This document shows positions 8,218 to 17,590 of a stretch of DNA of 64,000 bases, in pieces. Location: positions 288,001-352,000 of the forward strand of contig CBDIID010000003.1 of assembly GCA_965279515.1 (NCBI GenBank). Direction: 5' to 3'. Every line of letters begins with the position of its first letter. The first letter of the stretch is position 1. Source of the stretch: Turneriella sp. (GTDB lineage: Bacteria; Spirochaetota; Leptospiria; Turneriellales; Turneriellaceae). The notes beneath the pieces are model-generated. The model was not told where the DNA came from and searched no databases. It was given only the letters and a program-made list of their open reading frames with translations. A program made the position numbers and the translations under genes.

Positions 8218-9123
8218 ATGAAGATTGAGACGGCGATTACCCGTATGCTGGGCATCGATCTGCCGATCATCGGCGCGCCGATGTTCCTGGTGTCTTATCC
8301 CGACCTGGTCTGTGCCGTCTCGAATGCCGGTGGCATTGGCAGCATGCCGGCTCTCAACTATCGCACCACCGACGAGCTCAAAGCAGGTCTCACAGAGATT
8401 CGCAGCCGCACGACGAAGCCGATCGGTATCAATCTCATACTCCATAAAGAGCATAACCCGAACTGGATGAAGCAGTTCGAGATCTGCCTCGAGTTCAAAG
8501 TAGAACTCCTCATCACTTCACTGGGCAGCCCACGCACTATTATTAAGGAGGCAAAATCTGTCGGGTCAAAAGTGTTCTGCGACATCACAACGCTGAAACA
8601 TGCTAACATCGTAGCCAAGTCGGGCGCCGACGCGCTCATTGCAGTGGCGCAAGGGGCAGGGGGCCATGCCGGGGCAATCAGCCCTTTCGCCCTGATTCCG
8701 TATCTGAAAACCGAGATCCCTGAAGTGCCTGTCGTGGCCGCCGGCGCCATTTCAACGGGCAAACAGATGGCAGCCGCCCTTGCCCTGGGCGCCGACGCCG
8801 TCTATGTCGGCACCCGGCTCATCGCCACCCCCGAGGCCCAGGCCTATGCGGAGTACAAACAGATGCTGATCGATTCAGCACCTGAAGAAATCATCTATTC
8901 GCCGAAGATCTCGGGAATTCCCGCGAACTGGCTGAAACGCTCGCTCGACAAACTCGATCCCGACTTCAAACCGGATACCGGGCTTTCGGTCGAAGCCAAG
9001 TCATGGAAAGAAGTCTGGTCTGCGGGCCACGGTGTTGCGCAGATTACGAGCGTTGAACCTGCTGAAGAAGTGATCCGTTCTATGGCGATCCAGTATTTAG
9101 ATACGAAGAAGAATTTACCCTAA
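8218..9123 (+). CDS. nitronate monooxygenase / FabK-like flavin oxidoreductase
   Basis: PIIGAPMFLVS, AVSNAGGIG, GAGGHAG, VVAAGAI, GADAVYVGTRLIAT, WSAGHG. Confidence 0.88.
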   Translation: MKIETAITRMLGIDLPIIGAPMFLVSYPDLVCAVSNAGGIGSMPALNYRTTDELKAGLTEIRSRTTKPIGINLILHKEHNPNWMKQFEICLEFKVELLITSLGSPRTIIKEAKSVGSKVFCDITTLKHANIVAKSGADALIAVAQGAGGHAGAISPFALIPYLKTEIPEVPVVAAGAISTGKQMAAALALGADAVYVGTRLIATPEAQAYAEYKQMLIDSAPEEIIYSPKISGIPANWLKRSLDKLDPDFKPDTGLSVEAKSWKEVWSAGHGVAQITSVEPAEEVIRSMAIQYLDTKKNLP

Positions 9124-9968
9124 TGCCACTCGACCAGGAATTCGAAGATAAATCGGCCAAGGCTGCGAATGCCGGCATAAAACAGCTGCGCGAGGACCAG
9201 GGCTATATGCCCATGAGTGCCCACCTCGGCGAACTCAGAAAGCGCCTGATGCGTGCGGCGTTATGGATAGTGGCGTTTTCAACGGCAAGTTACTTCTTTT
9301 ATAATTTGGTTTGGACCTTCATCATGGGGCCAGTCGCTGAACTCATCCGCAAATCAAGGCTGCCCGATATGCCCTCGGTCAAAATCATGACCACGCGCCT
9401 CGGCGACAACTTTGCCATTGAGTTCAAGATACTGCTGCTGGCAGGGTTCATCCTCGCATTTCCATTTATCATCTTCGAGATCTGGCGTTTTATCACGCCG
9501 GCGCTGTCAGCAGGCATCCGCCGCTGGGGCAGTATTATTCTTTTGTCGTCGGTAGCCTTGTTCTGGTGCGGGGTGCTTTTCGCGCGGCTCGTGACCTGGG
9601 GTACCGTGGCGGATTTCCTCGTGTTCCAATGGCTACCGCCGCCGATTGTACTGTCGGCCACCGAGAGCGTCAGGCCCGAGATTAACCTGACGATTGCGGA
9701 TTACCTTTCTTTCTTTACGGGTTTTCACCTCGCGTTCGGCCTGAGCTTTCAGCTGCCGATCGTTTCGGTACTGTTGGGGTCGATTGGTGTGATCTCGAGC
9801 GGCCTGTTTTTGCGATTCTGGCGCCATGCCATTGTTGCGCTCTGCCTGTTTTCTATCGTTGTGATGCCGCCCGATGTCTTTGCCATGCTTACGCTGATGG
9901 TGCCGATGATGGGGTTATATTTTCTCTCAGCGTTTCTGGTCTGGCTCATTGAGCGGCGTAAAGAATAG
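9123..9968 (+). CDS. tatC: twin-arginine translocase subunit TatC
   Basis: MPMSAHLGELRKRL, EIWRFITPAL, FGLSFQLP, PPD; six TM segments. Confidence 0.93.
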   Translation: MPLDQEFEDKSAKAANAGIKQLREDQGYMPMSAHLGELRKRLMRAALWIVAFSTASYFFYNLVWTFIMGPVAELIRKSRLPDMPSVKIMTTRLGDNFAIEFKILLLAGFILAFPFIIFEIWRFITPALSAGIRRWGSIILLSSVALFWCGVLFARLVTWGTVADFLVFQWLPPPIVLSATESVRPEINLTIADYLSFFTGFHLAFGLSFQLPIVSVLLGSIGVISSGLFLRFWRHAIVALCLFSIVVMPPDVFAMLTLMVPMMGLYFLSAFLVWLIERRKE

Positions 9969-10006: not shown

Positions 10007-10034
10007 ATGTGACATAAGATACCCTATATGTTGT
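10007..10034 (-). other. attL: dif-like site (degenerate XerC arm, GGTATC spacer, XerD-like arm)
   Basis: Minus strand reads ACAACATATAG-GGTATC-TTATGTCACAT; right arm matches 9/11 of E. coli XerD arm TTATGTTAAAT. Confidence 0.75.
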
Positions 10035-10038
10035 AGTT

Positions 10039-10362
10039 ATGTCGCCAAGGCATGTAGAGCGCGCACCGTATTTCCGGGATCGTACAAACCGGCAATATTA
10101 TCGTCGGCCGGGGGAATCCGGGAACGGTTTTTTCTCCCGATTTATGCGGGATACGTTGCGCCTAGACAGTTTTGAGGCACGTCGTCAAGGTCGGCGGCCG
10201 TATGGTGGGAAAAGTGTTCAGTACGTAGGGTGGCTTGACTGGTGCCGCCTTACTAGGTCGGTACATCCGAACGACTGGCGCCGAGTAAAGCAATATGGCT
10301 TCCGTGCCCCTGATGGCAATATCTACAAACTACGAAATCGCTATGGCGTGGTACGGCGTTGA
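10039..10362 (+). CDS. prophage hypothetical Arg-rich protein (start uncertain)
   Basis: ORF track; overlaps next ORF; may be partly non-coding origin/promoter DNA. Confidence 0.3.
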   Translation: MSPRHVERAPYFRDRTNRQYYRRPGESGNGFFSRFMRDTLRLDSFEARRQGRRPYGGKSVQYVGWLDWCRLTRSVHPNDWRRVKQYGFRAPDGNIYKLRNRYGVVRR

Positions 10363-10513
10363 AATGCAACGTTGGGGCGGGGGTAGCTGGATTACGATCA
10401 GCGTGCTCGCCGAGAATGCGGGGCACGCCTGTATGAAGGCTGAGCGCCGAAGGCCGGGCTACATAGCGATGTCAGTAGAGCGTGGAAATACTTATAAAAG
10501 GCGGTTTCGATGA
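10343..10513 (+). CDS. prophage small hypothetical protein (MAWYGVEMQRW...)
   Basis: In frame with track ORF 10295-10513; ATGA-coupled to next ORF. Confidence 0.55.
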   Translation: MAWYGVEMQRWGGGSWITISVLAENAGHACMKAERRRPGYIAMSVERGNTYKRRFR

Positions 10514-10755
10514 AAATAATGGAAGATGAGACAGGTACTGGTGTGACCATTATCATGGATCAAAGTAAAAAGTCTGATACTCTTTTTTATGCGATGGGAA
10601 TATCCCTCGTGATAAAAGGTGCGCTGGCTGATGGATTTACGCAGGTTTTTGTGAATACAAAACCTGACCGGGAAGGTAACGACCGTGTGTTGTTGTCATT
10701 CCGGAAACCTTCGCCGCGTCCCGAAGGGGAACAGCGGGGGGAACAGCATGGCTAA
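10510..10755 (+). CDS. prophage hypothetical protein (possible ssDNA-binding protein)
   Basis: 81 aa, beta-rich with flexible C-tail; function inferred from size and position only. Confidence 0.55.
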   Translation: MKIMEDETGTGVTIIMDQSKKSDTLFYAMGISLVIKGALADGFTQVFVNTKPDREGNDRVLLSFRKPSPRPEGEQRGEQHG

Positions 10756-10966
10756 TTTTTGTATTTATGTCAGTACGTCCGAGGGCAAACGAATTGTTCG
10801 CGGTACTGCGCTGACTGTGCCTGAATTTATGGAAAAAGTTCAGGCCCGATTTACACCTGAGAAGATTCGCAGCGAAGGTGTTTATGAAGAAATGGATCTT
10901 GATGAGACCCCGGCGATTCATGCCGGTGTGACAACACGCAAGATTCGTGCGAAGAAAGTGGATTAG
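10748..10966 (+). CDS. prophage hypothetical protein
   Basis: ATG 10748 after GGGGG RBS, in frame with track ORF 10685-10966; overlaps upstream stop. Confidence 0.6.
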   Translation: MANFCIYVSTSEGKRIVRGTALTVPEFMEKVQARFTPEKIRSEGVYEEMDLDETPAIHAGVTTRKIRAKKVD

Positions 10967-10989
10967 GCGGAAGGAAAAGGGAAAATGAA

Positions 10990-11217
10990 ATGGCTTGGTA
11001 CGGGAAAAGATATGGTGGTTATCGACCGCGCAAGAGGTTTGTCGTGAGACGCTTTTTTGGCGGTCGTCGGCGTCGGGGTGGTGGGTCACCCATGGCGAAG
11101 CGTCGCGCGTTTTTTTGGGGTGGCATCCTGATGATTTTCATCATGATGTGTGCCCCAAATGTTCGCGCATGGATCGTTGCGAAGTTCTCGCAGTGGTTCC
11201 CCAGCTGGAGGGCATGA
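10990..11217 (+). CDS. prophage Arg/Gly-rich protein with single TM helix (candidate DNA-membrane tether)
   Basis: MAWYGKRYGGYRPRKRFVVRRFFGGRRRR... then hydrophobic FFWGGILMIFIMMC; purine-rich RBS. Confidence 0.7.
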   Translation: MAWYGKRYGGYRPRKRFVVRRFFGGRRRRGGGSPMAKRRAFFWGGILMIFIMMCAPNVRAWIVAKFSQWFPSWRA

Positions 11218-11218
11218 G

Positions 11219-11920
11219 ATGTATCAGTATAATCGGGAACTGAATGCGGTTGCGATGGCCGCTGGTCAATATCAGTTTGATGTTGAAAAGCAGCTTGTTT
11301 CTAAAATTGCCATTGGTCTGCGTTCCACTGGATCACCTCCGGTAACGCCGACTGTGGCTCAGCTGAAGGCAACTTTTTTCGTTGCTCGCCATATTGCTCC
11401 CGGGGTCGACCGCGAGCTGTATAATATTAGCCTTTATGATCTGGCTATGCTTACAGACGAAAAAGGTGGTTATTCACGTGATTGGACGGATACGGATTTA
11501 TCGGACACGAATATTGTGGCACCGTTTGGACTTGATCTTCGTCAGGAAGGAAAAATCCAGTGCTATATCAGTGTTCCGGCCACGATCGCTAACTGCGCTA
11601 TATCTGCCTACCCTGTGTACGATGGCCAAATGCCTACAACGCTTGCGTACCGTACGCAGACGACGTCTGGAAGCTGTTCTATCAGTAATTGCTTCCGGTT
11701 GTACTCGCGGGACGAGTCGGGTACTGAGCTTGACCTCAAGGTGGGGGATTTCTCTAAGAAAGCCATTGACTTTCTTATGGGAAAGATCCTTTTCAGTGAG
11801 CAGGCCAAGATCGAGAACGAAACGCCGTTCGCGCTGCTTTATTCGAGTCCATCACCGTATTTGGTGAAGCTCGACCGTATGGCGGGCAGTTGCACGTTTG
11901 TTTCTGTGGAGCTTCCATAA
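11219..11920 (+). CDS. candidate major capsid protein (233 aa, beta-rich; possible double jelly roll)
   Basis: ATG 11219 after GGAGG; no TM or signal peptide; alternating hydrophobic beta pattern with short helices; function is inference. Confidence 0.5.
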   Translation: MYQYNRELNAVAMAAGQYQFDVEKQLVSKIAIGLRSTGSPPVTPTVAQLKATFFVARHIAPGVDRELYNISLYDLAMLTDEKGGYSRDWTDTDLSDTNIVAPFGLDLRQEGKIQCYISVPATIANCAISAYPVYDGQMPTTLAYRTQTTSGSCSISNCFRLYSRDESGTELDLKVGDFSKKAIDFLMGKILFSEQAKIENETPFALLYSSPSPYLVKLDRMAGSCTFVSVELP

Positions 11921-12579
11921 TGTTGATGCCGGGCGGTAGTGAGGGGCCGAATTCTGATGTTATTATTCGTGATTTTTACGAAGATCAGAAAACGGCGTTA
12001 AGAGCTACCGCTCGGAATCGTGCGGACGCTGACCGGAAGGTTCGGGAATATGAAGAATTCATAGAGGCTAGGCGTTCCACGCTGGAGTCCGCCCAGGTCG
12101 CGCAGTGGGAGAGGGAAAAGCAAGAAAGAGAAGCAAAGAATAAAGCCGCGTCTGGGGAATCTTTCATATCCAACGCGGGTGGCCTTCTTGGAAAACTCTG
12201 GGATGGCATTGTGGGTAATTATACCGGTGGTGCCCTTTCTTCAGATAGCCTGAAGAAATACGGCAAGAATGCGGTTGGGGTGTCGGATTTCGATGCTCCG
12301 AAGGTTGATATCCCGAATTTCGATTTTGAAGGTTTCAAAGCGAAATCGGCGGCCGCATCCAAAGCAGCTGCTAACGCGGAACTCAGGGCTGCGGGCGGTG
12401 GTACGGCCAATTATGGGTCAGGGGCTATTGCCATGACGAAAGAGGTTAAGGAATTTTCAGATTCGTTTACGAACGGTATCGACAAGAGTCGTATCGGATA
12501 TACGTTGCCGAATTTGAGCCTTCCTGATTTTGATTTTATGGGTGGAGCTCAGCAAGTGAGGGATTTTTATGAACTTTAG
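11920..12579 (+). CDS. prophage coiled-coil Ala/Gly-rich protein (candidate pilot/DNA-delivery protein)
   Basis: TAATG coupling to upstream gene; charged helical N-half, Ala/Gly-rich segments. Confidence 0.6.
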   Translation: MLMPGGSEGPNSDVIIRDFYEDQKTALRATARNRADADRKVREYEEFIEARRSTLESAQVAQWEREKQEREAKNKAASGESFISNAGGLLGKLWDGIVGNYTGGALSSDSLKKYGKNAVGVSDFDAPKVDIPNFDFEGFKAKSAAASKAAANAELRAAGGGTANYGSGAIAMTKEVKEFSDSFTNGIDKSRIGYTLPNLSLPDFDFMGGAQQVRDFYEL

Positions 12580-12826
12580 TATGGGCAGTTTGAATTCGCT
12601 TCTTTCGGGAGCGAGCGAGATATCAGGATCGTTCGGTGGGCCGACGATACCTGGGGCTACGCCGCCGCCTCCGCCGCCACCAGCGGTGCAGGCTGTTACG
12701 CCGCGTGATTCGGGCGCCGACTTTGGCGCGGGTACTTATGCCGCTGGTGCGGGCGTATCATTGGTTGCGTTGTATCTTGGATACAAGGCTCTGCGGTATT
12801 TCGGTGTTATTCCGAAGGTAATATGA
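12569..12826 (+). CDS. prophage Pro-rich small membrane protein
   Basis: Poly-Pro linker followed by C-terminal TM (AAGAGVSLVALYLGY) and basic tail. Confidence 0.7.
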   Translation: MNFSMGSLNSLLSGASEISGSFGGPTIPGATPPPPPPPAVQAVTPRDSGADFGAGTYAAGAGVSLVALYLGYKALRYFGVIPKVI

Positions 12827-12957
12827 TCCGCAAAATACTTGCTGGGATTTTGAGGTTCATTCACAATGAAGCGTTGTTGCTTAAGCTGGCTGATTATTTG
12901 GAACAGCCTTCTTTGGATGAATCCGTGGGGCAGCCTGATGGCCAAGAAGCTTCTTAA
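12823..12957 (+). CDS. prophage small hypothetical protein (44 aa)
   Basis: ATGA-coupled ORF MIRKILAGILRFIHNEALLLKLADYLEQPSLDESVGQPDGQEAS; not in the track. Confidence 0.55.
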   Translation: MIRKILAGILRFIHNEALLLKLADYLEQPSLDESVGQPDGQEAS

Positions 12958-13579
12958 GAACGTTGAGGCCCCGGCTGGCCTTCGGGATATTATTCTGGAG
13001 GAGTATGAAGCTTACAAAGCTTATCGGGGCGCCGGTGCGCCTGATCAATTATTTAGTACTTTTGCCGCTTCGTCTGGAACTGGCGTTCCCTCTCATGATG
13101 CTGGTAAAGCTATTGATATTGTTACTGACGGTTACGATAGCCGCCCTTATCTTTTTGAATTTGGGATTTGGCTATTTGTTAAAAGACCGGACCTGAGCGT
13201 TTACTTCTATTCGATGCAGTATGAACCGCATGTTCATATTGGGCAGGTTTCTGGGTTTGGAAAGGGATCTTACCTAGCCGTGAACAAAGGTGCAAAGGGT
13301 AAGTTCGATATTTATCCGCGTGCCCAGGTCGCCGGCAAAGCTTCGGATATAATCGGAAAGCTGAAAGCGGCGCGGGAAACTTATCCTGCGGGTGTAAATG
13401 TGGATTGGCCTACCTATCAGGCCATGCTTGAGGGGAAGGTCCCTGTAGGGACGAGTAATTGGAAACAGTATTTGAAAAAATACTGGTGGGTTGGATTATT
13501 GAGCTTTTTGGCTCTTGGAATCGGTTTTTTTATTTGGAGATCTAGGAATCAGGAGGAAACTGAAGATGGAATTGCATGA
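12938..13579 (+). CDS. M15/LAS-type zinc peptidoglycan peptidase with C-terminal membrane anchor
   Basis: SHDAGKAID (SxH..G.AxD) and PHVHIG (HxH) motifs; C-terminal TM YWWVGLLSFLALGIGFFIW; start moved to ATG 12938. Confidence 0.7.
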   Translation: MAKKLLKNVEAPAGLRDIILEEYEAYKAYRGAGAPDQLFSTFAASSGTGVPSHDAGKAIDIVTDGYDSRPYLFEFGIWLFVKRPDLSVYFYSMQYEPHVHIGQVSGFGKGSYLAVNKGAKGKFDIYPRAQVAGKASDIIGKLKAARETYPAGVNVDWPTYQAMLEGKVPVGTSNWKQYLKKYWWVGLLSFLALGIGFFIWRSRNQEETEDGIA

Positions 13580-13664
13580 TGTAGGTTTAAACGAGTTGCT
13601 TCTCGTAGTGTTTAACCTGATCACCACAGTGATCGCGTATTTTCGTGGTAAAAAATCTAACTGA
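13566..13664 (+). CDS. prophage 32-aa single-TM protein (holin-like or virion membrane protein)
   Basis: AGGAGG RBS; MELHDVGLNELLLVVFNLITTVIAYFRGKKSN; TGATG-coupled to next ORF. Confidence 0.65.
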   Translation: MELHDVGLNELLLVVFNLITTVIAYFRGKKSN

Positions 13665-14140
13665 TGAAGTGGGTTTGGACCGCGTTGATTGGCCTTGTTG
13701 GCTGGTTAATTTATGATTGGCTCCGGGATAAACCCGGGGCTGTTTCCAACTCGGTGCAGGATTCTGCAGACATGATGGGGGCCGTGGCAGACGGTATCAT
13801 TGAAAAGCAGAATGCAAAGAAGCCGAAGAAATGGATTTGGCTTTTGCTTGGCTCTGTCCCTGTTATCGGGACGGGTCTTTTTTTCCTATTCAGAAAAAAG
13901 AAGCCTATGAGTAATCTGTTTAATTTGGGTTATTTGGGTCAGAAGGCTCCGGCAGGATCGGAATTTGATTCTCGATACTTAGCAGGATGCGCGAAGGCAC
14001 GGCGGGAGAGTTTGAAGATGGATTTCGCTAAGACTCAGGGCGCAACGGTCGCCGGCTTACCGATAGAGAGTGTGATGGCCACTTTTGGCAAGAAGAAGGT
14101 GTACGATGAAGGTAATTTCAGAAAAGCTCAGCGGTACTAG
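13664..14140 (+). CDS. prophage two-TM membrane protein
   Basis: Hydrophobic segments WVWTALIGLVGWLIY and WIWLLLGSVPVIGTGLFFLF flanked by Lys clusters. Confidence 0.7.
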   Translation: MKWVWTALIGLVGWLIYDWLRDKPGAVSNSVQDSADMMGAVADGIIEKQNAKKPKKWIWLLLGSVPVIGTGLFFLFRKKKPMSNLFNLGYLGQKAPAGSEFDSRYLAGCAKARRESLKMDFAKTQGATVAGLPIESVMATFGKKKVYDEGNFRKAQRY

Positions 14141-14573
14141 AAGCTTCCGTGGCTTGGGCTTTGTTGAGATAAATGGGATTCAGTATCCCGTTTGTGGTTC
14201 TCGACAGTTTGAATGTGGTAGAAAGGCGACGGTGCGGTACGTCGATGAGCAGATAGAAATGTTGGAAGTGTTGGAACCGACAATGCTCGCAGTTTTTCCC
14301 GGGAGCTTAGAGGGGTTCCCTATTGCAACGAACGGTAGAGTTTTTGTCACGGTGGACAAGAAATATTCTCTTTATAGGGGACTGCTCGAAGGCATATGTT
14401 TGGGCGGTATTTCGGACGGTGCATCGACGATATCTGTCGTACCGCCGCTTTTTTTGAACTCACGTTATATATATGGCGCCGGAAGGATCGATCAGTGGAA
14501 CCCGGATTTCCCTGTATGGGATTCAAGCTTTGATTTGGCCTGGGATTTTGACGCTGTATCGATGCGTCAATGA
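14106..14573 (+). CDS. prophage hypothetical protein (possible vertex/spike component)
   Basis: ATG 14106 in frame with track ORF; ATGA-coupled to next gene. Confidence 0.6.
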   Translation: MKVISEKLSGTRSFRGLGFVEINGIQYPVCGSRQFECGRKATVRYVDEQIEMLEVLEPTMLAVFPGSLEGFPIATNGRVFVTVDKKYSLYRGLLEGICLGGISDGASTISVVPPLFLNSRYIYGAGRIDQWNPDFPVWDSSFDLAWDFDAVSMRQ

Positions 14574-15265
14574 TCGTTGGCAATCGATCATTGATACTGC
14601 CGGTTTCGGAGGCCGGTTGGGATAGGCTTTGGTCCCCGCCTGTTCGCAATTTCTCTTATCCGGATTCACGTGCTGGATTAATTCAAGGTTGCGTTGGGGA
14701 CGTGCCGGCGAAATCCGATATTACGCCGTATCTTGCGGGGAATGTATGGAATTCTGTCCAGATTTTAAGGTATAATCCGCCCACGAGTGTAGCGCTGACG
14801 CATGAGTATGGCAATACGTTCACGGGATCGGCGTGGACGCACGACGGTGATTTTCGTGACATGGCAGGCGCTGCGATATTTCCGGCTCCGCTGAATAATT
14901 ATCAGCGGGCGTTTGGCACGTTTGCAAATATTGGTATAGATCCGGATGAATCCGGAAAACCAGCCGCGAATTCGTTTAGTTATTTAATAAAATACAATCT
15001 TCAACGCGGTGGGTTCGTGCAAGTGTACGAGTTTGAAGAAGGGGCAGACGGCATCGTCTCCGTATCTATTCAAGGTGGTGTTGCTTCAGCCGTTAAGGCA
15101 CTTCGGATTTCCGATGGTTCATGGCAGGTTATCTCAGAAGGTGGAATGCTGCTGCCGGCGGGTGGTGGCCAGTTTTGGTTAAACGCCTCGTGGACGTCCG
15201 GTGTCGCGGCTACGCAAATGATTGCGCGACTGCGGTTTAGCGTAGAGGTTCCGTATGGCTTATGA
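14570..15265 (+). CDS. prophage beta-rich protein (possible receptor-binding spike)
   Basis: 231 aa, aromatic- and Gly-rich beta-like pattern, last gene before rep; function inferred. Confidence 0.6.
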   Translation: MIVGNRSLILPVSEAGWDRLWSPPVRNFSYPDSRAGLIQGCVGDVPAKSDITPYLAGNVWNSVQILRYNPPTSVALTHEYGNTFTGSAWTHDGDFRDMAGAAIFPAPLNNYQRAFGTFANIGIDPDESGKPAANSFSYLIKYNLQRGGFVQVYEFEEGADGIVSVSIQGGVASAVKALRISDGSWQVISEGGMLLPAGGGQFWLNASWTSGVAATQMIARLRFSVEVPYGL

Positions 15266-16010
15266 TTTGGCCGACGAGGCCGAGTCCTATTATTTCGATC
15301 AGTCTTTGAGCCCGGTGGTTTTGGATTATCCAAACGGCCGGGAAGTCTATTTTGAGGCAGCTCGAAAAAAAGAAGTCTTTGGTGGGGGGAAACGTGGAAA
15401 AGTCTTTTCAATGTCCGCTGCGGCGGTCAGAAGGTTCCGGCAGGCGCTTCGGCGAAGTGGTGCGAAATTTTCGCATTTCGTTACAGTCACTTTTCCGCCT
15501 GAGGTTCTTGGGATCGATGAGGATTGGCCCAGGTATGTCCGTAAGTTTTGGCAAAAACTTGCCGCCGAATGTCGCAAGAGGGATATTACGTATTTGTGGG
15601 TACGCGAGCCGCACAAAAGCGGACAACCACATTATCACATTATATGTACGAAAGGGCCGTTATTTCGGTTACTTGCGAATCGCATCATATCGGAGGGGAC
15701 AACCCGGGAGCGTGGACGACTTAACCTCCGGGTGGGTGTTCTGTGCAAAGCAATCTATCACGAAGGCGGTGCTGCGCGCTATATGTCAAAACTCGCCGGC
15801 TATTGCAGCAAGGAATCGCAGGTATTGCACGAGGAATCGTATCGTCATTGGGGCCGAAACTACGATGACGAGCTCCCAGACATCTACGAAGCAACTGCCG
15901 CTGTTTGCGACTGGGTAAGAAGCCAATATGATCGGCTGTATGCTTTTAAATTTCCGCGATTACTGCAGGTGCCGCGGGGTCTCCCCGTGGGGCCGGCGCT
16001 TTACTTTTAG
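15255..16010 (+). CDS. rep: HUH rolling-circle replication initiator (two-Tyr type)
   Basis: Motif I FVTVTF, motif II REPHKSGQPHYHII, motif III YMSKLAGYCSK. Confidence 0.88.
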   Translation: MAYDLADEAESYYFDQSLSPVVLDYPNGREVYFEAARKKEVFGGGKRGKVFSMSAAAVRRFRQALRRSGAKFSHFVTVTFPPEVLGIDEDWPRYVRKFWQKLAAECRKRDITYLWVREPHKSGQPHYHIICTKGPLFRLLANRIISEGTTRERGRLNLRVGVLCKAIYHEGGAARYMSKLAGYCSKESQVLHEESYRHWGRNYDDELPDIYEATAAVCDWVRSQYDRLYAFKFPRLLQVPRGLPVGPALYF

Positions 16011-16079
16011 CGCGCCGCACAATAATCCCCCTGGCTGAACAAGCAGGCCGGAGGCCGCACGTTTACGCGGCGAAAAGTG

Positions 16080-16224
16080 CCGTCTGCAGACGGATGTCTG
16101 CTTGCACGTCAAAAATCGTCGATCTCGATTTTGTTACAGGGCTATGCGTAGCCCTTTTTGCGTTTTGCTGCAGCAAAACGCGGGGGGTCCGGGGGGGCGA
16201 TAGCCCCGCCCGGGGGCGAAGCCC
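16080..16224. other. hairpin cluster, putative replication origin (dso/sso)
   Basis: Perfect palindromes 16080-16093 and 16160-16181; hairpins GGGCTA-TGCG-TAGCCC, GGGGC-GATA-GCCCC, GGGC-GAA-GCCC immediately after rep. Confidence 0.65.
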
Positions 16225-16402
16225 TTGGTTATAGACACATATTGAAGTTGACCTACTGAAAACATTGGGTTTTCTTGTCTTATGGGAATAGCAGAAGCAA
16301 TATTCATAATTGGTATCTGGGTTGGATCGAACGGAATCGTGTTTTGCGTCGCTGCGGAACTCTCCGGCAACTCGTTTTGTGTGTTTTAACAAAAAAAAGT
16401 TG

Positions 16403-16430
16403 ACGAGACATAAGATACCTTATGGGAAGT
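16403..16430 (-). other. attR: dif-like site (XerC arm, GGTATC spacer, element-derived XerD-like arm)
   Basis: Minus strand reads ACTTCCCATAA-GGTATC-TTATGTCTCGT; 11-6-11 layout with inner ATAA/TTAT palindrome; left arm matches 9/11 of B. subtilis dif arm ACTTCCTAGAA. Confidence 0.8.
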
Positions 16431-16453: not shown

Positions 16454-17590
16454 TCAGGGCGCTTGATTAACCGGTATCGCTTTAATCTGATAAGCGAAAT
16501 AAATGAAAAATAATATGTTTATCGGTACCTGTACATACGCCTTACACCAGTCTTGATTATAGATTAGCGTGACCAGAGAAAACAGTACTAGCACTGCTAA
16601 GTTCGGCCAACTGCTCTTTTGAAATTTCAAACGGCTGAGCATAAAGAAAAATACCGGAATCAGAAGAAATGCCCAATAAGGCCAGACTATTGGCGTGAGA
16701 ATACCCGAAATTCCCAGGCCATACGCATATCCTTCAAGCTTCTGCGTTCTTTTTATGCTCAGAAATAAAAGCCCTGCGGCGGCGGCGGTCATGAACCAAA
16801 AGATAAAGGCCAGACGTTGACTGAAGCCAAGATGCAGCAACCAACCGATCAGCGATTCGTTGTCCCGATGTCCCAACAGCCCTTCAGAAGATTTAGTCAG
16901 GCTCTTTAACCATGCGCCATTTTCAACGGTTGAGAATTCCCAGCCGGAATAAAGCGCGGTAACGCCGTAACTAATGATAATTAGCCAGACCGGAATCAGC
17001 AACAACCCTAGCCAGCGCCTTTGGATCAGAAATATCGGTGCGATAAAAAGAAAATGCAATTTGAATAAGATTGCCAACGCAAGGCAAAGCGCGGCGAGAA
17101 CCTGGGAAAATCGGGTTTCCGCGTTCAATAGTACATATGTCCCAAGGGAAAGAATAAGCGGCAGACCATTAATTTGCCCTAGCCTAAGTTCATCCCGAAT
17201 ACTTACAATAAAGACCAATGAAGTTATGATTTTTCCCTGGAATTCTGAAATTGTGCCATCAAATGAAAAATATTTCGGCAAAGCAAAAAATATCAGCCAA
17301 ATCCAGGCGGCCGTAAAAAGAAAATAGAAAATCCAAGGCCGCGCTTCCTTAGGGCAAGGAGTAATAATCGCACCAAAAAACAGCGCCACGGAAGGCGAAT
17401 ATTTGAATTGATAGTGATTTTCCACATCGAAAACCGTTTTGTGATTTATTGCTTTGGCCCCGGCCTCTTCGTATACCCTAAAATCGTCGAAAACCGGCTT
17501 GGAATTTAAAAACATGGTAAATACATACACCAAAACGAGGCCAGAAAGAATAAGAAATCTCCGTTGCTTGCTAAGAACCATATTGCCCAT
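16454..17590 (-). CDS. GT87/DUF2029-family polytopic glycosyltransferase (GT-C)
   Basis: DFRVY, FKYSP, ELRLGQIN, LAILFK, NESL motifs; many TM helices. Confidence 0.8.
   Translation of the reverse strand: MGNMVLSKQRRFLILSGLVLVYVFTMFLNSKPVFDDFRVYEEAGAKAINHKTVFDVENHYQFKYSPSVALFFGAIITPCPKEARPWIFYFLFTAAWIWLIFFALPKYFSFDGTISEFQGKIITSLVFIVSIRDELRLGQINGLPLILSLGTYVLLNAETRFSQVLAALCLALAILFKLHFLFIAPIFLIQRRWLGLLLIPVWLIIISYGVTALYSGWEFSTVENGAWLKSLTKSSEGLLGHRDNESLIGWLLHLGFSQRLAFIFWFMTAAAAGLLFLSIKRTQKLEGYAYGLGISGILTPIVWPYWAFLLIPVFFFMLSRLKFQKSSWPNLAVLVLFSLVTLIYNQDWCKAYVQVPINILFFIYFAYQIKAIPVNQAP

Follow-up and report, generated by a model that had tools for sequence, protein, structure and literature searches.

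The question raised by this locus is how a segment of 6,396 bp (10024–16419) came to lie between two host genes of a Turneriella sp. chromosome, and which enzymes put it there. Positions refer to the 64-kb stretch of DNA that was analysed (the window) unless a contig is named; the 4.9-Mb assembly is called G000 and its chromosomal contig C3. The left flank carries the host gene tatC (9123–9968, + strand; PF00902, E 1.3e-50), and the right flank a gene coding a GT87 glycosyltransferase on the host side (16454–17590, - strand; PF09594, E 1.7e-12). The segment is in all probability a prophage, with a predicted double-jelly-roll (DJR) capsid protein and an HUH replication initiator (Rep). It lies between the hybrid halves of the likely dif site, at which the host would unlink its chromosomes, and the host recombinases XerC and XerD most likely inserted it in the form of a double-stranded circle. 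The evidence comprises the identity of the rejoined site with the sites of relatives, its position at the chromosome terminus, the lack of a recombinase gene in the element, a host gene set that includes xerD, an xerC candidate and ftsK, and two further genomes (G012 and G450) that repeat the arrangement.

The two ends of the segment share the 13-mer GACATAAGATACC (10011–10023 and 16407–16419), as stated in the preliminary description, and a search of both strands of the 4.9-Mb assembly finds these two copies only. Each copy is part of a junction with an 11-6-11 organization (10007–10034 and 16403–16430). The attL site (10007–10034, - strand) is composed of the host XerD arm (10007–10017), the core (10018–10023) and a phage arm on the XerC side (10024–10034), and attR (16403–16430, - strand) of a phage XerD arm (16403–16413), the core (16414–16419) and the host XerC arm (16420–16430). 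Read on the minus strand, the order is phage XerC-side arm, core and host XerD arm at the left junction, and host XerC arm, core and phage XerD arm at the right one. Slicing the sequence to join the outer and the inner arms gives precisely the two 28-mers written earlier for the host site and for a putative attP. The XerC and XerD labels follow the likeness to the Vibrio consensus, whose left arm ending in CATAA is that of XerC (PMC12715192); the assignment stands because both outer arms have short flanks similar to those next to intact sites, the attL outer flank being like the XerD-side flank of intact dif in several relatives.

The phage arms differ in their closeness to the host arms. The XerD arm of attR is identical to the host arm at 9/11 positions, with the inner 7 exact, whereas the XerC-side arm of attL is identical at 6/11 only; together with a 6/6 core this bears out the degenerate XerC arm previously attributed to attP. 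A register of the phage XerC arm with a spacer of 8 nt, judged by eye, is possible but leaves only 4/11 positions equal to the host arm. The attP and host dif of G000 have an unbroken 13 bp in common. The attR site matches the host 28-mer at 26/28 positions, and its arm variant TTATGTCTC is present also in the intact sites of three relatives (G004, G007 and G009); judged from this sequence, attR is likely the working dif of the lysogen.

The 13-bp repeat on its own is weak evidence and not significant, an exact direct repeat of this length being found somewhere in a 7.5-kb stretch in 78/200 dinucleotide shuffles. The weight of the junctions comes instead from the joined outer arms, which match the intact sites of relatives at 28/28 positions. 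The frequency of such repeats in shuffled sequence is what speaks for a chance repeat, or an assembly artefact, as the origin of the junctions. That reading is extremely improbable given that one contig covers 9000–17500 in 4/4 sequencing runs (Logan contigs), that the joined arms form a site conserved among relatives, and that G012 and G450 carry the same design.

The 28-mer of joined outer arms is exact in 6/13 genomes of the same genus (G001, G002, G003, G006, G008 and G011). The others have one mismatch (four genomes), two mismatches (two genomes) or three (G012, where the site itself is split); in G010, one of the four with a single mismatch, the site is on the contig of a second replicon. 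The two-arm pattern searched with at most 2 mismatches has matches in 39/41 genomes, 13/13 within the genus. The backward pattern used as control gives 0–2 matches per genome at the same threshold, so that only near-exact matches count. These comparisons indicate that the joined outer arms are likely the dif of the host chromosome, and the sequence predicted for it by reconstruction is thereby recovered in related genomes. A search of the G000 genome for further copies, as proposed earlier, reveals no better chromosomal site. The only other close site is on C1, a 23.5-kb parAB replicon with its own dif-like copy, one per circle and with a different core. Prediction of dif in 7 organisms of the Spirochaetes was reported before, and the supplement of that study may already list leptospiral dif sequences (PMC3025954).

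The C1 site is found at G000:C1:4774–4801, in a replicon that codes for housekeeping-type proteins besides parAB. The C1 contig (38 kb) is the 23.5-kb circle assembled 1.6 times, with overlap, and one of its proteins has its top plasmid match in Turneriella parva (77%), followed by Leptospira, in keeping with a host from the Turneriella-like spirochaetes. The C2 contig (19.8 kb) contains a 6.6-kb plasmid three times over; the plasmid codes for a restriction-modification pair and has a mobilisation gene. Similar second dif-like sites are found in G011 (contig C2), G004 and G010. Relatives at the order or class level (G024, G026, G029, G033, G037 and G040) have 2–4 dif-like sites whose cores differ, some of them located where a contig ends; this suggests second replicons or further Xer-integrated elements.

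The junctions (C3 298,007–304,430) were compared with the position of the replication terminus. Cumulative GC skew has its maximum at C3 311,186 and its minimum at 2,844,850. The polarity of the 10 most skewed octamers, ranked outside 100–500 kb of C3, switches at 296,653 (range 286,630–312,864), and the top polar octamer is the KOPS-type GGGCAGGG (195 vs 46). The switch is at 296,735 for the top 30 octamers and at 345,095 for the top 100. Terminus estimates are scattered, with a masked skew maximum at 322,401 and an uncorrected third-position skew value of 200,779; neither third-position skew nor gene-strand bias locates the terminus. In G011, whose site is at 3.405 Mb, the flip of skew and of KOPS-like counts falls between 3.35 and 3.44 Mb, and in G450, whose site is at 1.460 Mb, between 1.40 and 1.50 Mb (20 sampled 20-kb stretches in each genome, with the counted motifs chosen from G000). 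The site thus sits where skew and KOPS-like polarity switch, which answers the comparison with the GC-skew terminus called for beforehand; a KOPS switch at dif is named as a hallmark in PMC13342612.

Note that the local skew peak is shaped by an rRNA operon (23200–29400, - strand) whose end is some 7 kb away from attR. A scan for DnaA boxes did not locate oriC. The dnaA gene of G000 (C3:4283251–4283739) is about 1.44 Mb from the GC-skew minimum and about 0.86 Mb from dif. In G011 (dnaA at C1:440–928) and G002 the distance between dnaA and dif is 0.85–0.98 Mb, and the sampled skew of G011 goes positive near 1.2–1.4 Mb. The replication origin of the genus may lie far from dnaA.

Relatives were searched for an unoccupied site flanked by tatC and the GT87 gene, as suggested in the preliminary description, and none of them has the order tatC-dif-GT87. 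The GT87 gene has no match in 17 relative loci (L031–L047). In 9/13 genomes of the genus (eight relatives and G012; probably also G009) tatC is found less than 1 kb from dif on its XerC side, whereas tatC of G000 faces the XerD arm, dif being inverted relative to tatC. The most similar tatC of five tested is that of G001 (90%); no dif follows it. Genes coding AraC and FecR proteins are on the XerC side in both G001 and G000. Since no relative has the G000 gene order and 9/13 have tatC on the opposite side, the locus has been rearranged. The genes on the XerD side of dif vary from genome to genome, and this variation, together with the inversion relative to tatC, identifies the terminus neighbourhood as very labile. 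The XerD-side flank of dif in G013 (L040:10001–10070) resembles the phage-side flank of attR (77% over 69 nt) and is not followed by a phage gene; from this resemblance it is possibly the remnant of a related prophage.

The inserted element (10024–16419) is present as a single copy in the assembly; all its likely genes are on the + strand, which has a GC skew of +0.18. It begins with four small ORFs (10295–11217; 72, 81, 72 and 75 aa) that belong to no known family; the fourth has a hydrophobic segment. The next ORF (11219–11920, 233 aa) has no family match in Pfam or PHROG profile scans. Its structure model, built from 8 sequences (pLDDT 74.7), has among its top Foldseek matches the major capsid protein of FLiP (5e-9), STIV and phiCjT23 (TM 0.64). 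An independent VIA-align search of all structures against the model places phiCjT23 first (Z 15.4, rmsd 3.5, 209 residues aligned), with FLiP within about 1 of it, in effect a tie. The ORF is thus predicted to code for a DJR major capsid protein whose best structural match is phiCjT23. It is followed by ORFs of 219 and 85 aa (11920–12826) of no known family and by one for a 213-aa protein with a C-terminal hydrophobic segment (12938–13579), which has no Pfam match and a homolog in G012 (locus L043). The Atlas feature matches of this protein to VldE and Peptidase_M15 clusters (0.83–0.87) are under 0.9; as a lead, it is possibly a lytic enzyme of the peptidase-M15 clan. Next come a 158-aa ORF with a membrane segment, a 162-aa ORF and a 231-aa beta-rich ORF (13664–15265). 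The last of these might be a spike (Atlas 0.75, not a meaningful value). The gene most distal to the left end codes for the HUH rolling-circle replication initiator (15255–16010, 251 aa; PF23343 REP_ORF2-G2P, E 1.4e-11, above the cut-off; phrog_3419, E 8e-7).

Behind rep, a non-coding motif (16222–16240, + strand) is conserved in L043 and in the metagenome contig L050, where it follows GC-rich hairpins. With up to 2 mismatches allowed, it matches 1 place in all of the G000 assembly, and it is absent behind rep in G450; it was defined from the same three sequences in which it is conserved (G000, L043 and L050). Its sequence makes it a candidate double-strand origin or nick site. Searches of element ORFs for repressor families and of the six frames of the three elements (G000, G012 and G450) for a Walker A motif gave no match. 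The sequence GGGNAGGG is absent from both strands of the element. A promoter switch, in which attP alone would bring together a -35 box from the right end with a -10 box from the left end (9/12), was considered and dropped: attL and attR each hold another 9/12 promoter match, 11 such matches are on the + strand of the circle, and a scan of the region finds 10 promoter-like sites vs 6.6 +/- 2.3 in shuffles.

Relatives of the element are few. The capsid protein has no tblastn match at E<=1 in 50,697 phage records, and 17 representatives are found at E<=0.001 among 1.84 billion sequences, two of them of unlike length. Among the cluster members listed, 10/49 have a longest contig of 6.1–6.6 kb, a hint that these contigs are free unit-length genomes. 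Capsid and Rep queries detected no relatives in a viral contig collection (one weak match, seemingly unrelated) and no further ones in a collection of genome contigs. Metagenome contigs yielded only 3 short Rep contigs, of which L050 stops before any att site. The dif pattern has 0 matches in the viral contig collection. A profile search with the capsid gene is positive in 2/190 genomes of the class (G000 and G012) and in 2/401 genomes sampled from the phylum (G000 and G450).

The related element of G012, a genome of the same genus, ends at GCTTCTCATAA TGTATC TTATGTCACAT (L043, position 6549), which comprises the core and the host XerD arm. Behind tatC, on another contig, comes ACTTCCCATAA TGTATC AAGTGTCGCAT, with the host XerC arm and the core. 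G012 therefore displays host outer arms, the same core twice, and phage arms of 9/11 (XerC) and 7/11 (XerD); the link between the two junctions is inferred because their contigs are separate and non-overlapping. G450 is a closed genome from another family of spirochaetes. Its element (6,412 bp, locus L056) codes for a capsid homolog (E 2.7e-40) and a protein with a weak PF23343 match, and lies between two dif repeats, ACTTCCGATAA GATATA TATATGTCTCT and ACTTCCGATAA GATATA TTATGTCTCAT; the latter is the sole exact match of the dif pattern in that genome. The attP of G450 has a XerC arm of 11/11 and a XerD arm displaced by one base, and shares 21–22 bp with dif. The weak attP arm is thus that of XerC in G000 and that of XerD in G012 and G450. 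In G000 and G450 the genes run away from the host XerD side, in G012 away from the XerC side. G000 and G012 have a + strand rich in G and T, and G450 has no strand skew.

Two further features of the G450 prophage are noted. Its ends (L056:9455–9535 and 15865–15920) are inverted repeats that enclose attP in a stem, about 20 bp long, only in the circular form. Inside the prophage, at the end of rep, L056:13320–13347 has, in the orientation of the att sites, a XerD arm that is perfect and a XerC side that is poor; by its sequence it is perhaps the scar of a second Xer event.

The enzymes for integration at dif would be supplied by the host. XerD is identified by TIGR02225 (348.6 bits, above the cut-off). 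The second Xer-like gene is the XerC candidate, with 297 bits against a TIGR02224 cut-off of 335 that only 3/14 control genomes pass. FtsK gamma is present in 3/3 hosts (G000, G012 and G450). The genome codes for 4 tyrosine recombinases (PF00589), none of them in the element (C3 298–304 kb; 12 + 8 ORFs scanned). Hybrid attL and attR in direct orientation, a dif target at the terminus and KOPS switch, the lack of an own recombinase, a host XerD and a near-canonical dif in attR are the features of an IMEX. The earlier classification of the element as an IMEX holds for every feature that can be tested apart from a host XerC, the candidate for which scores below the cut-off. The XafT-like activator, which we take to be DUF3653 (PF12375), has no match in G000 and weak matches outside the elements in G012 and G450; one of the small ORFs may code for a diverged activator.

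The most probable course, Xer integration of a double-stranded circle, can be outlined as follows. After entry, rolling-circle replication would produce the replicative form that presents attP, offering a good XerD arm (9/11, inner 7 exact), the complete core (6/6) and a weak XerC arm (6/11). Double-stranded recombination is the likelier route because attP shares the whole 6-bp core with dif, and a fully homologous core would allow the completion of both strand exchanges. In view of the good XerD arm, and by analogy with dimer resolution and with the gonococcal island (PMC5357621), the XerD exchange would probably take place first, activated by FtsK at the terminus. After integration attR (26/28) could serve as dif, while attL would keep the weak XerC arm, which may make excision infrequent or slow. 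Contigs of the 4 Logan runs (1 study, up to 2 samples, depth 4–9) span the integrated form and contain no excised or circular joint; the runs are possibly the source of this assembly, and such contigs drop rare forms.

The circle might also have joined dif without Xer catalysis, by a RecA-independent or Rep-mediated route that used the 13-bp homology, the likeness to dif then serving only as homology. The unbroken identity between attP and dif in G000, longer still in G450, would suit such joining, as would the nicking-joining Rep of the element. It is nevertheless very unlikely: 3/3 integrated members found (G000, G012 and G450) sit at dif with a 6/6 core and partly diverged arms, as Xer sites would be expected to look, a distance of 180 nt separates the candidate nick motif from attR, and Xer dependence was demonstrated for a gokushovirus with such motifs (PMC7062461).

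Integration by the same host recombinases could alternatively use a folded single-stranded attP. The preliminary description had pointed to an extra inverted TTATGTC (10037–10043, + strand) that would let single-stranded attP fold back. It is a copy of the inner XerD-arm heptamer, 19 nt from the arm, and in this reading would help to build or present the substrate. The heptamer is present (chance occurrence within 60 positions, calculated post hoc, about 0.4%) and can pair with the XerD arm (predicted pairing probability about 0.5–0.9 in most windows); this part of the proposal stands. Its extension to a CTX-like fold does not, for the pairing is limited to 7 bp and has shuffle-level stability: the hairpin has -4.1 kcal/mol (z about -1) and 30–41/200 shuffles are equally stable. 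The 19 nt between the paired heptamers are too few for a duplex core and XerC arm, so the hairpin rebuilds only the inner XerD arm and leaves the XerC arm in the loop. CTX needs two palindromic sites about 90 nt apart (PMC5357621), and fold-back of the CTX type is rejected on geometry and energy. No inverted two-arm partner rises above shuffles either in G000 (15/22 vs 14–15) or in G450 (16 vs 15–16), and the attP fold of G012 is at background; neither relative has the heptamer feature in its G000 form. The inverted repeat around the reconstructed attP of G450 is strong (0–1/200 shuffles, z about -3.7 to -4.6) and is a partial copy of the intact arm located beyond the degenerate arm, and the G/T-rich + strand of G000 and G012 is compatible with a single-stranded phase, a strand skew that G450 lacks. 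On balance, integration through a folded single strand is improbable and insertion of the double-stranded circle remains the preferred reading.

The G450 repeat copies the outer XerC arm and its flank, a mirror of the G000 arrangement, and neither rebuilds a two-arm site. In two members (G000 and G450), part of the intact arm recurs in inverted form on the far side of the weak one. It is conceivable, if doubtful, that the elements represent a spirochaete phage family with an interchangeable attP design outside the CTX, VGJ and TLC classes. Either arm could be weak and either dif orientation used, with no recognisable Xer activator, and the inverted half-site would act as a third Xer-binding position or as a fold-back that controls integration versus excision.

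By the sequence of its attP and genes, the element is a Xer-exploiting prophage of the phiCjT23-like or "dif-type DJR" kind and not one of the CTX, VGJ or TLC type. The dif-flanked prophages of Flavobacterium (6.0–8.4 kb), whose Xer integration was inferred from sequence, have a minimal DJR capsid (PMC9719478). phiCjT23 and its related prophages (PDB 7ZZZ) resemble the G000 element in this capsid (239 vs 233 aa; Z 15.4), a rolling-circle initiator, dif motifs at both ends and a size range that includes 6,396 bp. They differ in their host (Bacteroidota vs Spirochaetota), in a capsid identity of 9–10% and in gene order, rep being closely followed by the capsid gene in phiCjT23-like phages, whereas the HUH ORF2/G2P-type Rep of G000 is coded last, far from the capsid gene. 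phiCjT23 has a single-stranded genome and a membrane virion; for the spirochaete elements only indirect hints of this kind are seen, namely the HUH Rep, the strand skew of 2/3 elements and the hydrophobic ORFs. The dif-type DJR prophages of Vibrio and PM2 share the DJR capsid, the lack of an integrase, the dif target and an attP that may copy just one arm plus core. The Vibrio attP is left-armed, right-armed or full (PMC12715192); the "right-armed" form matches the G000 element and the "left-armed" form that of G450. The Vibrio prophages are larger (12.9 +/- 1.0 kb) and carry a P15/P16 lysogeny module, whereas the G000 element (6.4 kb) has no repressor, XafT-like or Walker A match.

IMEXs of the CTXphi type share with the G000 element the host XerCD, the dif target and a rolling-circle Rep (PMC5357621). 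CTXphi is filamentous and its folded strand with two inverted sites undergoes XerC-only exchange, features not found here; the core of CTXphi- and VGJphi-type phages is homologous to dif on the XerC side only, while that of the G000 element is identical at 6/6 positions. A double-stranded attP, a homologous central region and completion of both exchanges are shared with TLCphi and the gonococcal genomic island (GGI; PMC5357621, PMC9226527). TLCphi and GGI have a degenerate XerD arm and an intact XerC arm, the reverse of G000 (XerC 6/11, XerD 9/11); the TLC-like polarity is present in the relatives G012 and G450. Enterogokushovirus EC6098 is likewise a small icosahedral phage with no integrase and with flanking dif motifs, and its XerC/XerD-dependent integration was shown experimentally; it differs by its microvirus capsid and by a phage motif that varies in the spacer and XerD arm (PMC7062461).

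The proposed mechanism is a familiar one, and the host phylum, Spirochaetota, is new as far as the literature searched goes: no earlier report of a DJR or Xer-exploiting phage of spirochaetes was found in it, few subscription papers being covered. The finding extends Xer-exploiting tailless prophages to spirochaetes, whose phages found in the literature are otherwise tailed or transposable. It also provides Turneriella-like bacteria and their second replicon with a defined dif sequence that can be tested. The three prophages, which weaken opposite attP arms, provide a natural comparison of which recombinase acts first and of what prevents excision. A 28-bp attP that uses host enzymes could act as an integration site for genetics in this poorly tractable saprophytic group.
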